From Candidatus Cloacimonadales bacterium (GTDB taxonomy: Bacteria; Cloacimonadota; Cloacimonadia; Cloacimonadales; JAIOQZ01): a stretch of DNA of 64,000 nucleotides. This document shows, piece by piece, positions 25,546 through 32,653 of the stretch. Numbering within the stretch: position 1 is the first letter of the stretch; every line of letters starts with the position of its first letter. The DNA is taken from positions 1,792,001-1,856,000 of the forward strand of contig OY771587.1 in assembly GCA_963674825.1 (NCBI GenBank), written 5' to 3'. A program made the translations under genes and the position numbers. Below the pieces are notes generated by a model. The model had not been told where the DNA came from. It ran no database searches and worked only from the letters and a program-made list of their open reading frames with translations.

Positions 25546-26868
25546 ATGTGCTCTAACGATCAACGCTATAATCTTCTCGATGAGAAATGGTTACCTGTCC
25601 TGACACTTCGTGGAAAGAATGAAAAGCTTGGCATCATCGAAACGCTCGAACAGGCGGCTTCAATCCGCCAAATCGCCCCCAGCAACCCCATGGACCGGTT
25701 CGCGGTCTTCCGGTTTTTGCTGGCTGTGTGCTATTGGTGCGCGGATCGGACAAAGATGCCATTCTCCAAAAATGGTTCTAAGATACCGAGTGAGTGGATC
25801 ATTTTCCTTGAAAGGCGGCGTGATTGCTTTAATCTGCTGGGGGATGGGAAGAGGTTTTATCAATCTAAGAATGGGCATGAGCAATCAATAACCTACTTGA
25901 TTCATGAACTCCCATCAGGTACAAACCATGAGTTTATCAGGCATGTTTGTGATGATCGCTCAGGTTTATGTCCGGCATGTTGCGCACTTGGATTGATTCG
26001 ATTACCTGTATTCACGACAAGCGGTGGAAGAGGCTATTCACCGGGAATCAATGGCACTCCCCCATTGTACATGATTTCTTGGGGTTATAATCTGTATGAA
26101 TTGCTTCGAGCAAATTGGAGAATATCTGATAGCATTGGCCCTCCTTCATGGGATCCCGGCATTCAAGCAAGCATTTCATCAGAAGATATTCCATTACTGG
26201 CAGGATTAACCTCACTTCCTCGATATGTTTGGCTGAAGGAACCAGATCGTGACGAGAATACCGGTATTTGTTCTTTTTGCGGTATACGAACCGATAAACT
26301 TATATCACATTGCGAATACAGTCCGGTAGCAGGAGTTTTCTCCGAGAGTTGGAAAGATCCTTACATCATCGATATCAGTACATCATCGAAACGCAAATCG
26401 CTCATGGTATATAATCTGAAATCCCCAGGCAAGTTCACATTCGATAGAAGGACAAATGAACAACTACCGATGACCCCATCTTGTAATAAGATGTTACTCA
26501 TTGGTTTCTGTGCCGATAAAGCTGAAAACGTTGATGTCTGGGAAAAAACCATTACTCTGTCGTCATCATCCTCTGAGGAAGAAATGGGATCTGTCTGGAA
26601 CATAGCAGCAAGAGAAATCACGAAGAAAGTCAAAGCTCCATTCATTCTTCAAAAAGCAAGACCTCACGTCGAGCAGCTGGTCGCGAATCACATGACCGAC
26701 CTGCTATCGGGCAACGGAAATTACACCTGGGATGACGCCGCGAACGAATACGCACCGTTCATGGAAGCTGCGGCCGAATCGCTCACACCGGATGTGACAA
26801 TCAGGGATGCCCGAAAGCGCAGGGAGATCACACAGGTACGTCCCAAGCTCCCGAAGGAGGACAAGTAA
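25546..26868 (+). CDS. cas8e: Type I-E Cascade large subunit Cas8e/Cse1 (short, 440 aa)
   Basis: YNLLDEKWLPV, CPACCALGL and GGRGYSPGINGTPPLY motifs; first gene of the cas operon. Confidence 0.88.
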   Translation: MCSNDQRYNLLDEKWLPVLTLRGKNEKLGIIETLEQAASIRQIAPSNPMDRFAVFRFLLAVCYWCADRTKMPFSKNGSKIPSEWIIFLERRRDCFNLLGDGKRFYQSKNGHEQSITYLIHELPSGTNHEFIRHVCDDRSGLCPACCALGLIRLPVFTTSGGRGYSPGINGTPPLYMISWGYNLYELLRANWRISDSIGPPSWDPGIQASISSEDIPLLAGLTSLPRYVWLKEPDRDENTGICSFCGIRTDKLISHCEYSPVAGVFSESWKDPYIIDISTSSKRKSLMVYNLKSPGKFTFDRRTNEQLPMTPSCNKMLLIGFCADKAENVDVWEKTITLSSSSSEEEMGSVWNIAAREITKKVKAPFILQKARPHVEQLVANHMTDLLSGNGNYTWDDAANEYAPFMEAAAESLTPDVTIRDARKRREITQVRPKLPKEDK

Positions 26869-26869
26869 G

Positions 26870-27358
26870 ATGGCAAGTATCAGCACCTATCGTTTCATCA
26901 TCAACCTTTCGAAGCTCAAATCGGGCGAGCTCAGTCTCCTGCGCACCCACGCCGATCAGGGCCTCGACGAGAGCCTGCAAGGTTTCGATATCTTTACCGG
27001 CATCTGGTGGCCACTCAGGCAGAAGAATCAGCGTGCTCCACGCCGAAGCGTGGCGTGGCTTGTCTGCAAGCTCTACGCCGTCGCACCATTGCCTTTCGAA
27101 AAGGGCGAACACATCATGACGCTCCTTGCCAAGCGACGAAAACAGTTGGATAACGATAAAAGAGATCGTTTCGACAAGCGCGTCGATGAAATGCTCGTGC
27201 AGTCGCTCGATACCATCGAGCCTCATCTTCGGTGGGCCTTGCGAGAGATCGCAAAGCTCGGGTCTCTCGACTGGGCACAGCTTACCGATGATCTTTCCAT
27301 CTGGGAAAGACAGACCACCCGACAAAAATGGATCAACCAATACATCATTCAGCAATAA
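26870..27358 (+). CDS. cse2: Type I-E small subunit Cas11/Cse2
   Basis: Position in the operon, helical character and C-terminal LDWAQLTDDLSIW...KW. Confidence 0.85.
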   Translation: MASISTYRFIINLSKLKSGELSLLRTHADQGLDESLQGFDIFTGIWWPLRQKNQRAPRRSVAWLVCKLYAVAPLPFEKGEHIMTLLAKRRKQLDNDKRDRFDKRVDEMLVQSLDTIEPHLRWALREIAKLGSLDWAQLTDDLSIWERQTTRQKWINQYIIQQ

Positions 27359-27370
27359 CAGGAGGAACCC

Positions 27371-30346: not shown

Positions 30347-31300
30347 ATGCTGACAAAGGATTATCACGAAGTCCCCAAGGTCCGTGACAAATGGAGCTGG
30401 CTCTACATAGAGCACGGCATCATCGACCGGGAAGACAAGGCCATCGCCGTACACGACCTTCGCGGATTGACGCCCGTTCCTTGCGACAACCTTTCCGTGT
30501 TGCTGCTTGGCCCGGGAACGAGTATCACGCATGCCGCAATAACGACTCTGGCAGACTGTGGATGCCTGGTCGTGTGGAGTGGTGAGCAAGGCGTAAGATT
30601 CTATGCATCGGGAAGCGGTGCAACCAGGAAGGCTTCTCATCTTCTCCGCCAAGTGAAACTCTGGGCGAACGAGTCTTCCCGACTGTACGTCGTACGCAGA
30701 ATGTACGAATTCCGCTTCCCCGAGAAACCGGACCCATCACTGACGCTGGAGCAGATCAGGGGTATGGAAGGCGTAAGGGTTCGTGACGCTTATTTCAATG
30801 CCTCACGCGATACTGGTGTTCCATGGAATGGGCGTAACTACGACCGACGAGACTGGAAGAATGCCGACCCGGTAAATAAAGCGCTATCCGTGGCGAATTC
30901 CTGCCTCTACGGGATATCTCACGCGGCGATAGTGGCTGCCGGATATTCCCCCGCGATCGGATTTGTGCATACCGGGAAGCAGCTATCGTTCGTTTACGAC
31001 GTCGCTGACCTGTACAAGACGGAATTGACGATACCCCTGGCTTTCCAGACCGTTGCCGAAGTGGATAGAAACCTCAACCGCGAGGTGCGCATCCGATGCC
31101 GGGACATGTTCCATAGGCATGGACTCCTCAAACGGATCGTGAAAGATATTCACGGCATCTTAGGCGCTACGCCACCCGAGGATGCCGATGACGACTTCGA
31201 CGCGGATCCGGCAAAACCCGGTGGATTATGGGACCCTGTAACCGGTGAATGTGCCGGCGGTGTTTCCTACGGCGAGGGTGGTGATAAGGAGGAAGAATGA
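30347..31300 (+). CDS. cas1: Type I-E Cas1
   Basis: [23 protein letters not shown] and [20 protein letters not shown]. Confidence 0.97.
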
Positions 31301-31581
31301 ACGTCATGATTCTCGAGAAGGTGCCTGTCTCACTCAGAGGAGAGCTGACTCGCTGGCTGCTGGAGGTGAAGGCAGGTGTGTTTGTCGGTAATGTCTCCGC
31401 CATGGTGCGCGACCGGCTATGGAAGAAAGTATGCGGTGGTTCCAAAGGCGGCGCTTGCATGATGCTGTGGTCAACGAACAACGAACAGGGTTTTCGTGTT
31501 GACTTCTGGGGTGCCAATAGTAGAATCGTCACAGATTGGGAGGGACTTAAGCTATTGACAAAGCCCTCGAAGCCCGATTAA
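31297..31581 (+). CDS. cas2: Type I-E Cas2
   Basis: [40 protein letters not shown] and DWEGLKL. Confidence 0.96.
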
Positions 31582-31588
31582 ATCAAGA

Positions 31589-32653
31589 GTATTCCCCACG
31601 CATGTGGGGGTGAACCGTCCTCGCCAGACACTATTCTATAATTGGTTCTGTATTCCCCACGCATGTGGGGGTGAACCGGAGGTATGATATGGCAGGATAT
31701 CTTGGATACGTATTCCCCACGCATGTGGGGGTGAACCGGTCCGATACATCGAACACCACTCCGAACTATTGTATTCCCCACGCATGTGGGGGTGAACCGA
31801 GGTGAAACTCGTTGTGAAGGCAGGAATTGAAGTATTCCCCACGCATGTGGGGGTGAACCGTTGCGCGGTCAGGAATTAAGCCGTGACGTATCGTATTCCC
31901 CACGCATGTGGGGGTGAACCGTCGGCCACCGTGCTGTCCCCAACGCTGTTGTAGTATTCCCCACGCATGTGGGGGTGAACCGAGGGCATCCTGAAGATTA
32001 TGGACGACCTGCACGTATTCCCCACGCATGTGGGGGTGAACCGGACTCGACCAGCATCATCGAGCTGACTCCCGGGTATTCCCCACGCATGTGGGGGTGA
32101 ACCGAAGGACATCAGTCAATTGACTACGATTAGCCCGTATTCCCCACGCATGTGGGGGTGAACCGATAGTACTGGTGACGGCAGATACTCGGTCAGCGTA
32201 TTCCCCACGCATGTGGGGGTGAACCGAGGATCAATGATGTACAGTTGGATATAACATTGTATTCCCCACGCATGTGGGGGTGAACCGCCCGTGCCATCGC
32301 CGAACGTATTGTTGAGAAGGTATTCCCCACGCATGTGGGGGTGAACCGTATGCGATGCTGGGCATAACATTCAACATGCTGTATTCCCCACGCATGTGGG
32401 GGTGAACCGTACACCTCAGGGATGTATCACACACTCGTTCCGTATTCCCCACGCATGTGGGGGTGAACCGACATCATTAGCTACGCAAAGCGTTTGATCA
32501 ATGTATTCCCCACGCATGTGGGGGTGAACCGTAGGTTATGGGGATATAGGTTTTGGTACCACCGTATTCCCCACGCATGTGGGGGTGAACCGGCATTCAA
32601 GACAGACAAGAAAGGCGGTCTGGAGTATTCCCCACGCATGTGGGGGTGAACCG
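31589..32653 (+). CRISPR. CRISPR array 1, type I-E: 18 repeats / 17 spacers
   Basis: 29-bp repeat GTATTCCCCACGCATGTGGGGGTGAACCG at a ~61-bp period; spacers 31-32 bp. Confidence 0.98.

Follow-up and report, generated by a model that had tools for sequence, protein, structure and literature searches.

HNH-bearing variants of CRISPR-Cas systems belonging to type I-E, in which the nuclease is fused to Cas5, were described by Altae-Tran (2023; PMC10910872) and named I-E2 in a later classification (Makarova, 2025; PMC12669027). The complex of Candidatus Cloacimonetes bacterium ADurb.Bin088, referred to below as the reference, has been solved (PDB 8YB6, 8YHA, 8ZLU, and 9JXS), and its substitutions H310A and D324A abolish cleavage (Liu, 2025; PMC11794572). 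Since I-E2 Cascades make defined cuts and have edited human cells with up to about 13% indels (PMC10910872), further orthologues have value as tools. An HNH domain also stands in for Cas3, as the only nuclease of the effector, in the Cas8-HNH system I-F4 of Selenomonas (Hirano, 2024; PMC11459484) and in the DinG-HNH system IV-A2. There, however, the domain is carried by Cas8f or DinG and not by Cas5, I-F4 uses an I-F backbone, and its cuts leave 5' overhangs, whereas those of the I-E2 reference leave 3' overhangs.

The locus considered here lies in a 64-kb stretch of genomic DNA (the window) and consists of cas8-cas11-cas7-cas5(HNH)-cas6-cas1-cas2, followed by an array of 18 repeats (Table 1). 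Pfam and TIGRFAM profiles bear out the gene set and order that an initial annotation had listed as complete from cas8e to cas2 and array. The five genes of a type I-E Cascade (cas8e, cas11, cas7, cas5, and cas6e) form one operon. For Cas8, TIGR02547 scored below its cut-off (59.9 vs. 70.05) and PF09481 above. The Cas1e motifs RGMEG, GFVHTG, and DVADLYK, whose catalytic role we presume to be that of their E. coli Cas1 counterparts, are intact. A further in-frame ATG of cas5 is found at 28491. The reading that we favor, at a probability of roughly 0.86, is that the locus encodes an active type I-E2 immune system, carried on a tRNA-Thr island and defending its host against phages, including Mu-like transposable phages.

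Table 1. Positions of the locus, its arrays, and the surrounding island within the window.
Feature	Position	Strand	Remarks
tRNA-Thr(CGT)	4456..4531	+	Left end of the island
53-bp direct repeat, left copy	4484..4536	+	Perfect match to right copy
Tyrosine integrase	4734..5906	+	390 aa; PF00589 and PF13102
AAA ATPase, DUF3150, and DUF2201/VWA genes	22232..25341	+	Directly upstream of cas8; island genes outside Cascade
cas8e (Cse1), PAM-reading large subunit	25546..26868	+	440 aa; PF09481, E 3.5e-28
cas11 (Cse2)	26870..27358	+	162 aa; PF09485
cas7, backbone	27371..28501	+	376 aa; TIGR01869 over cut-off
cas5-HNH fusion	28494..29624	+	376 aa; PF09704 and PF01844
Linker and HNH nuclease domain (Cas5 aa 256-365)	29259..29588	+	Alignment to 8yb6_A
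cas6e	29599..30336	+	245 aa; TIGR01907
cas1e integrase	30347..31300	+	317 aa; TIGR03638, 386 bits (cut-off 216)
cas2e	31297..31581	+	94 aa; TIGR01873
Main CRISPR array	31589..32653	+	18 identical 29-nt repeats, 17 spacers
Spacer 17	32593..32624	+	32/32 to DUF3164 gene of a Mu-like prophage, same-genus genome G117; target preceded by 5'-AAG
Copy of cas2 3' end and leader	45673..45852	+	169/180 identical; last 100 bp identical
Second (mini) array	45853..46063	+	Four repeats, one mismatch in the last; three spacers
53-bp direct repeat, right copy (3' part of tRNA-Thr)	49321..49373	+	Right end of the island

For all five Cascade subunits, the best match in the PDB is a chain of 8YB6: 8yb6_J for Cas8 (E 6e-79, aligned to reference residues 81-509), 8yb6_K for Cas11 (E 3e-29), 8yb6_D for Cas7 (E 3e-118), 8yb6_A for Cas5 (E 1e-127), and 8yb6_B for Cas6 (E 8e-61). 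In a quick Cas5 tree, the proteins of the genus form a well-supported clade of three members among I-E2 proteins. Together with the absence of cas3 from the genome, these matches agree with the initial placement of the locus as a further member of the Cas5-HNH variant, and sequence comparison confirms it as type I-E2, a known kind that has already been named, reconstituted, and structurally solved. The architecture had been called rare but not new. The second part holds, but the first does not, as I-E2 homologues are not scarce in current databases: 119 full-length Cas5-HNH homologues with 58-84% identity were found, and the family spans more than a dozen phyla. Similarly, cas1 and cas2 are intact, as the description of the locus as adaptation-competent implied, but this does not set it apart from other I-E2 loci, since cas1, cas2, and an array belong to their normal layout (36, 38, and 37 of the 38 loci with enough flank, respectively). 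Carriage of cas1-cas2 and the short leader were accordingly rejected as special features, the median gap between cas2 and the first repeat being 18 bp over 59 loci. To what is known of I-E2, the locus adds only one phage target and one small structural difference.

With the reference, the locus shares the five-gene Cascade, the C-terminal HNH domain of Cas5 (about 54% identity for Cas5), the absence of cas3, the H-D-H triad, four cysteines, 32-nt spacers, and the phylum. It differs in a Cas6 without the loop bearing H50, F51, and K53, in a Cas5 with glycine for K302 and glutamine for H295, and in a Cas8 that lacks 80 N-terminal residues and ranks with the shortest family members. The short Cas8 N-terminus was considered as a defect and rejected, because residues 1-80 of the reference Cas8 are unresolved in the cryo-EM structure. 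The flanks of the Cas8 glycine loop also differ between the two, so the PAM may differ. Compared with canonical I-E systems (E. coli, Thermobifida fusca), the order cas8e-cas11-cas7-cas5-cas6e-cas1e-cas2e, the 29-nt hairpin repeat, and the 61-nt period are the same. The differences are a single Cas11 instead of two, as in the reference structure, a first repeat that lies only 7 bp past cas2, and the lack of Cas3, the HD nuclease and SF2 helicase of the canonical type. Without Cas3, neither processive shredding nor Cas3-driven priming is to be expected. Type I-F4 was rejected as an identity, the Cas8 being of the Cse1 type with no HNH match and the Cas1 being Cas1e.

Cas5 and the HNH domain form a single open frame, in which PF09704 (aa 5-214) and PF01844 (aa 279-317) both exceed their cut-offs. 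An AF2 model from 120 sequences (pLDDT 80), which supersedes an earlier fold from 18 sequences (pLDDT 60), matches 8yb6_A best in Foldseek (E 2e-40, 54% identity). The modelled protein has the fold of the solved Cas5-HNH, and it also matches the HNH of phage GVE2 (5h0m) with 2.3 Å over 82 columns, at a weak E of 0.022. The nuclease domain that had been proposed for Cas5 is present, although its triad reads H-D-H and not H-N-H. It consists of H291 (29364-29366), D305 (29406-29408), and H314 (29433-29435), corresponding to H310, D324, and H333 of the reference. The zinc cysteines C279, C282, C310, and C313 (reference C298, C301, C329, and C332) are kept. Among 120 Cas5-HNH homologues, both histidines are invariant and the cysteines are kept, while position 305 is aspartate in 90, glutamate in 29, and glutamine in one. 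Reference residue T306, whose mutation nearly abolishes activity (PMC11794572), is S287 here, a serine shared by 8 of the 120 homologues. When compared with two relatives of the same genus, the HNH part (aa 251-365) gives dN/dS values of 0.138 and 0.117, whereas the Cas5 core has higher values of 0.18-0.22 in the same three genomes; by this measure, purifying selection acts on the HNH domain.

Part of the interface through which HNH and Cas6 touch in the reference is absent here. The Cas6 loop that reaches the nuclease in the solved structure measures 9 aa, while 57 of 62 homologues have 19-52 aa at this place. At the position of reference K302, Cas5 carries G283, while lysine is found in 118 of the 120 Cas5-HNH and glycine in this genus only; R218 of Cas6 is not kept either. 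On the side of Cas11, W47, R50, and Q54 are kept, equivalent to the reference residues W46, R49, and Q53 that contact the HNH linker (PMC11794572). By these residues, the contacts of the reference, which lie outside the published I-E2 definition, would be retained toward Cas11 and lost toward the Cas6 loop. The joint loss of loop and lysine represents one event on the tree and not a statistical covariation; two other loci with a short loop have arginine and lysine at the K302 position.

These losses would fit an intact locus whose HNH domain is poorly anchored, so that the complex mostly binds its target, blocking transcription or replication, or merely nicks it, and the system is decaying. 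In addition to the short loop and the genus-specific glycine, this explanation can draw on interface mutants of the reference, some of which lose activity in the form of reduced cleavage (PMC11794572), on broken locus copies in the relatives G116 and G117, and on two remnants in the window's own genome. It is nevertheless judged unlikely, because every catalytic and zinc residue is kept, the HNH domain evolves under stronger constraint than the Cas5 core in three genomes of which none has the loop, a loop of 10 aa also occurs in two unrelated loci (L133 and L136), and the Cas11 contacts as well as E270, R339, and Y259 are retained. An active immune system remains the preferred reading. The genus may tentatively, though with considerable doubt, be seen as a stripped-down I-E2 sub-lineage that lost the Cas6 clamp loop and its partner lysine jointly while the nuclease continued to be selected. 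In that case, Cas11 and the extension loop of Cas6 might do most of the anchoring of the HNH domain, the cut position might be shifted, or strand order or collateral activity might differ from the solved complex. If so, the locus would provide a compact, precise editor of type I whose properties differ, and a system with a natural phage target for studying spacer acquisition and priming without Cas3. A literature search covering few subscription journals found no treatment of these processes in Cas3-less systems. However, many I-E2 loci with cas1-cas2 could address acquisition, and the window is thus not uniquely enabling. Overall, this orthologue, a compact one with a divergent nuclease interface, is of modest importance.

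It is very improbable that the HNH domain is accessory and that Cascade recruits, in trans, a Cas3 or some other nuclease. Of 62 genomes that carry an I-E2 locus, 21 do have a Cas3_HD match over cut-off somewhere, and two show short cas3 fragments directly upstream of cas8. In contrast, a profile search of the window's genome, a single contig of 99.57% completeness, found no cas3 over cut-off, which extends the initial statement that the window lacks this gene to the whole genome. Below the cut-offs, there was one match to Cas3_HD (PF18019) and six to cas3_core (TIGR01587). The other CRISPR system of the genome is a Cas9 locus, and the reference complex cuts without Cas3 (PMC11794572). A helicase near this second locus was rejected as a Cas3 acting in trans, being Lhr-like and scoring 50 bits against a cut-off of 102. 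Of the matches below the cut-offs, the best is an Lhr-like helicase that adjoins a BrxD-like ATPase. Finally, an assembly artefact behind the fusion or the missing cas3 might be suspected of a genome that is probably metagenome-assembled (its closest relatives are labelled MAGs) and whose Cas5-HNH junction is not spanned by the contigs of a second sample (a coverage gap without conflict), but it is hardly conceivable and in effect refuted, as a separate short-read contig, probably from the same sample as the window, spans 25300-30309 with 0 differences and the identical fusion recurs in 119 homologues and in solved structures.

The main array contains 16 spacers of 32 nt and one of 31 nt. Its repeat folds into the hairpin of I-E systems (-11.7 kcal/mol, z -1.67), and its geometry fits a 61-nt crRNA with 32-nt spacers, the processing of which we infer. 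As only 7 bp separate the cas2 stop codon from the first repeat, the 3' end of cas2 probably doubles as leader and promoter of the array. A sigma70-like site with 10 of 12 matches lies at 31499-31526, in a region no richer in such sites than shuffled sequences. The data do not support an IHF site in the leader: sites with at most one mismatch to the consensus occurred in 6 of 43 upstream regions, compared with a mean of 2 and a maximum of 6 in shuffles. The second array, which the initial annotation had overlooked, has the same repeat as the main array and three spacers that are absent from it.

A convincing target was found for one of the 20 spacers in the window. The prophage matched by spacer 17 carries transposase, terminase, and portal genes. 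Three of 44 spacers from I-E arrays of the genus match two prophages of G117 at up to 8 mismatches, with the flanks AAG, AAG, and AAA, compared with none of 145 spacers of another family and none in 30 shuffles. Both degenerate matches come from G115, a relative with just 47% identity in Cas8. The PAM, for which the evidence is thus one perfect and two degenerate matches, is most likely 5'-AAG or similar. AAG is also the consensus PAM of E. coli. That a Mu-like prophage contains a perfect protospacer supports a natural use against phages and offers, besides a first guess of the PAM, a natural test target. In the window's genome, no match to the terminase of the G117 prophage was detected. This absence could be due to chance, as the prophage is also absent from two of the three other genomes of the genus.

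No two of the four same-genus genomes have a spacer in common despite their identical repeats, as expected from separate acquisition. Exact scans with parts of six of the 20 spacers (1, 2, 3, 4, 8, and 17) against viral contigs, and of spacer 1 against metagenome contigs, returned nothing. As spacer 17 was also blank in viral contigs despite its target in G117, such blanks say little. When the array was compared by BLAST with phage and plasmid records, all matches were of the repeat type or weak and attributable to chance. Self-targets were not found in the genome, where the best match of any window spacer outside the arrays has at least 7 mismatches. Two candidates were discounted, namely a site at G000:3507294 where 19 nt of spacer 2 match exactly but the spacer as a whole has 7 mismatches and AAG is absent, and a match of spacer 9 with 7 mismatches in G117.

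Taken with the reference, the locus suggests the following course of interference. The array would be transcribed on the + strand, probably from a promoter in the 3' end of cas2. Going by repeat geometry and the reference, Cas6e would cut the hairpins into 61-nt crRNAs with an 8-nt handle, a 32-nt spacer, and a 21-nt hairpin. As shown for the reference, Cascade would comprise one Cas8, one Cas11, six Cas7, Cas5-HNH, and Cas6, with HNH occupying the position of the second Cas11. Cas8 would read the PAM, most likely the 5'-AAG or similar suggested by the perfect protospacer. Once the R-loop has formed, the one HNH site (H291/D305/H314) is predicted to nick first the target strand and next the non-target strand, immediately past the PAM-distal end; in the reference, this yields a defined break that has 3' overhangs and involves no shredding by Cas3. 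New 32-nt spacers would presumably be inserted beside cas2 by Cas1-Cas2.

The proposal that the locus is carried on an integrative element holds in outline, its tRNA-Thr, integrase, and perfect 53-bp repeat delimiting an island of 45 kb, although mobility is putative. The AAA-DUF3150-VWA trio was rejected as a CRISPR accessory, as tblastn found it upstream of cas8 in none of 78 loci outside the genus and its other copies in G117 precede unrelated cargo. Relatives carry mosaic and decaying copies of the locus: G116 lacks most of cas1 and G117 lacks cas8, cas11, and cas7. The two locus remnants mentioned above lie in the same genome as the complete locus.

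The cas8e-cas11-cas7-cas5(HNH)-cas6e-cas1e-cas2e locus of the window most likely represents an active immune system of the I-E2 variant (probability roughly 0.86), judged from its I-E2 gene content, key residues, selection, cas3 absence and one phage target. Re-reading of the window sequence bore out the ORF and array positions proposed in the initial annotation, and Pfam and NCBIfam named the operon ORFs as Cse1, Cse2, Cas7, Cas5 with a C-terminal HNH domain, Cas6e, Cas1e and Cas2e. In the main array, 18 copies of an unvarying 29-nt repeat enclose 17 spacers, all of them 32 nt long except one of 31 nt. 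The proposed in-frame Cas5-HNH fusion is a single open frame, and the suspicion of an assembly artefact was countered by a separately assembled public-run contig, which matches positions 25300-30309 with 0 differences at a depth of 38. As this run probably derives from the window's own sample, the identical contig bears on the correctness of the assembly but not on how widely the locus occurs. Contigs of a second sample match the locus piecewise, the Cas5-HNH junction lying outside their cover.

The variant was named I-E2 by Makarova et al. (2025; PMC12669027, available excerpt) and has been the subject of a commentary (PMC11822464). For its reference, the Cascade of Ca. Cloacimonetes ADurb.Bin088, the available parts of the discovery paper report PAM-dependent cleavage beyond the protospacer (target strand 3-4 bp, non-target strand 8 bp) that leaves 3' overhangs, together with collateral ssDNA cleavage and human-cell editing (Altae-Tran et al., 2023; PMC10910872). 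The solved structure (PDB 8YB6), as presented in the accessible text, contains a single Cas11 per complex and defines H310, D324, H333 and four cysteines in the HNH domain (Liu et al., 2025; PMC11794572). The window Cas5-HNH matches chain 8yb6_A over both domains (E 1e-127), and the best PDB matches of Cas8, Cas11, Cas6 and Cas7 are likewise 8YB6 chains, in agreement with the earlier claim of a further Cas5-HNH member. Compared with the reference, H291, D305, H314, C279, C282, C310, C313, Y259, Q290, E270 and R339 are kept. An AlphaFold2 model of Cas5-HNH built from 120 sequences (pLDDT 80) also found 8yb6_A as its top fold match (E 2e-40, identity 54%); the high whole-chain rmsd fits an HNH domain that moves freely, and the modelled HNH overlays that of phage GVE2 at 2.3 A. 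Profiles and predicted fold both place an HNH domain at the Cas5 C terminus. Every I-E2 defining feature testable from sequence is present, and the locus is therefore an additional member of this known variant.

The window's genome is a single contig of 3.89 Mb with a completeness of 99.57%, and the cas3 absence claimed for the window extends to all of it: the Cas3_HD profile gave one match and the cas3_core profile six, all below cut-off, while controls were positive in genomes known to carry Cas3. The top helicase match is Lhr-like and adjoins a BrxD-like ATPase; the other sub-cut-off helicase matches, all but one frame of which are labelled, we take by eye to be RecG, Mfd, DEAD-box and SNF2 proteins. 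The sole other cas1 belongs to a Cas9 locus ~170 kb away (Table). Like the I-E2 locus, this Cas9 locus lies directly behind an AAA-DUF3150-VWA trio, here a decayed one. The three-gene module beside the Cas9 locus is probably a defence system; its 763-aa ORF has no NCBIfam match and appears TerB-like by eye, and its first gene is also found in the same-genus genome G117, downstream of a VWA trio.

A protein search with Cas5-HNH yielded 1750 matches among 4501 candidates, the best 119 non-self matches showing 58-84% identity with 94-100% length coverage. Among 167 candidate stretches from GTDB genomes, 148 code for a relative, and the best 80 of these come from over a dozen bacterial phyla and from two archaea; the nearest genome-labelled relatives are Ca. 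Cloacimonadales, which makes this order the most likely one for the host. The description of the architecture as not new holds, the variant being already published, but with 119 homologues in the full-length range and more than a dozen phyla it can hardly be called rare. Where at least 2.6 kb follows cas5 (38 of the best 80 loci), cas1 is present in 36, cas2 in all 38 and an array in 37. The gap between cas2 and the first repeat has a median of 18 bp (range 1-98, 59 measurable loci) and is 7 bp in the window. Cas3_HD exceeded the cut-off somewhere in 21 of 62 host genomes (14 of the window's phylum plus the hosts of 48 of the 80 loci). In two of these cases (L100, L131), judging by coordinates, the match is a small piece of a Cas3 HD domain immediately preceding the I-E2 cas8, in keeping with a stepwise loss of cas3; such fragments are likewise described in the available text of the discovery paper (PMC10910872).

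A natural phage target and a trimmed Cas6-HNH interface are the useful details of this locus. Spacer 17 matches G117:C6:420704-420735 at 32 of 32 positions, with AAG on the 5' flank, within a DUF3164 gene of a prophage that also carries a Mu-type transposase and ATPase, a terminase and a portal. No match to the prophage terminase was found in the window's genome, and no relative of the DUF3164 protein in viral_contigs. When same-genus I-E spacers were compared with both G117 prophage regions (71 kb, at most 8 mismatches), 3 of 44 matched, with flanks AAG, AAG and AAA, whereas none of 145 spacers taken from a different family of the phylum did so, and 30 shuffles likewise gave 0. From the Cas9 array of the window's genome, six of 30 spacers also matched, with 5-8 mismatches; both systems of this genome thus remember the same phage group. 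A convincing target was absent for 19 of the 20 window spacers, and the PAM is most likely AAG-like, as read from the single perfect protospacer.

Coordinates of CRISPR-related and neighboring features
Feature	Coordinates	Content or context
Related Mu-like prophages of G117 (two)	G117:C6:398000-429000; G117:C14:84000-124000	terminases 82% identical
Compact Cas9 locus (L011)	L011:11972-18400 (window's genome, G000, ~1,996,000-2,002,400)	Cas9 (1025 aa), cas1, cas2, 31-repeat array; ends near rlmH
Three-gene module	L011:4785-10540	763-aa ORF, BrxD-like ATPase, Lhr-like helicase; directly upstream of Cas9 locus
Cas3 HD fragments	L100 (~8180-8470); L131 (~6500-6700)	
Second mini-array	window 45853-46063	4 repeats, 3 unique spacers; 13 kb downstream of main array, same island
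Third I-E2 remnant (L181)	G000:C1:1974546-1974703	cas6 tail, cas1 start, one degenerate repeat
RhuM-family ORF	window 46087-47094	island right end
Serine-recombinase-like ORF	window 47576-49198	540 aa; island right end
Recurring island core	window 12776-15339 and 22232-25341	Rad52/22-family gene, two unknown ORFs, AAA-DUF3150-DUF2201 trio
Very large secreted proteins	window 35956-45438, 49939-58728, 15456-20246	two with LamG/PMP repeats (3160, 2929 aa), one of 1596 aa with T9SS-type tail

In the proposed mechanism, Cas6e would cut the transcript into 61-nt crRNAs, Cas8 would recognise the AAG-like PAM, the Cas5-borne HNH would nick both strands successively beyond the PAM-distal end and Cas1-Cas2 would insert new spacers adjoining cas2; expression, cleavage, cut position and acquisition we infer from the reference. 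The main rival, a weakened complex that would mostly bind its target, is considered improbable. In the reference, according to the accessible text, a Cas6 loop (H50, F51, K53) touches HNH residues K302, R358 and H295, and some interface mutants cleave more weakly (PMC11794572). The window Cas6 has 9 residues at this site and lacks the reference loop. Among 62 sequences measurable by sequence pattern (79 tried), the loop spans 19-52 residues in 57, 10 in two unrelated sequences and 9 in the three from the window's genus. At the position of K302, 118 of 120 homologues carry K, and the two with G both belong to the window's genus; the loop and lysine change is one event on the tree (genus trio SH-aLRT 100%; quick tree, 82 rows). 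Against two intact relatives, dN/dS is 0.138 and 0.117 for the HNH part (Cas5 aa 251-365), below the 0.22 and 0.18 of the Cas5 core, values that are rough owing to simple counting and high dS; such low ratios would speak against a decaying HNH part.

The I-E2 locus resides on a 45-kb island. The 3' end of tRNA-Thr, repeated perfectly over 53 bp, bounds it on both sides, and an intact tyrosine integrase is encoded at the left end. These features agree with the integrative element initially proposed, but its mobility is only putative: G115 and G117, two genomes of the same genus, also have their I-E2 locus near this tRNA, at a distance of 17-22 kb, but the DNA match ends before the integrase, which marks the site as a variable hotspot. 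No relaxase or conjugation genes were found among the island ORFs scanned, a part of the total.

Between the window and G115, identity is 47% for Cas8, 66% for Cas7 and 68% for Cas6, compared with 86% for Cas11 and Cas5 and 95% for Cas1. This mosaic pattern suggests that single subunits, including the PAM reader, may be exchanged between I-E2 loci. In locus L066, compared with window 25546-30336, the interleaved Cas11 and Cas5 are far less diverged than Cas8, Cas7 and Cas6. The third genome, G116, is 84-91% identical with its cas1 reduced to 19 codons, and G117 retains the locus in pieces only. All four genomes have the repeat in common and no spacer. In front of the mini-array, starting at 45673, the 3' end of cas2 is duplicated over 180 bp, the last 100 of them identical, which would fit an array leader inside cas2; no targets were found for the three mini-array spacers, which Cascade could use in trans. 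The L181 remnant retains the final 36 cas6 codons at 97% identity and lies near an apparent tRNA gene, identified by eye. The island core recurs within the genus, with three copies in G117, and carries varied cargo, either CRISPR loci or large secreted proteins such as those on or beside the present island.
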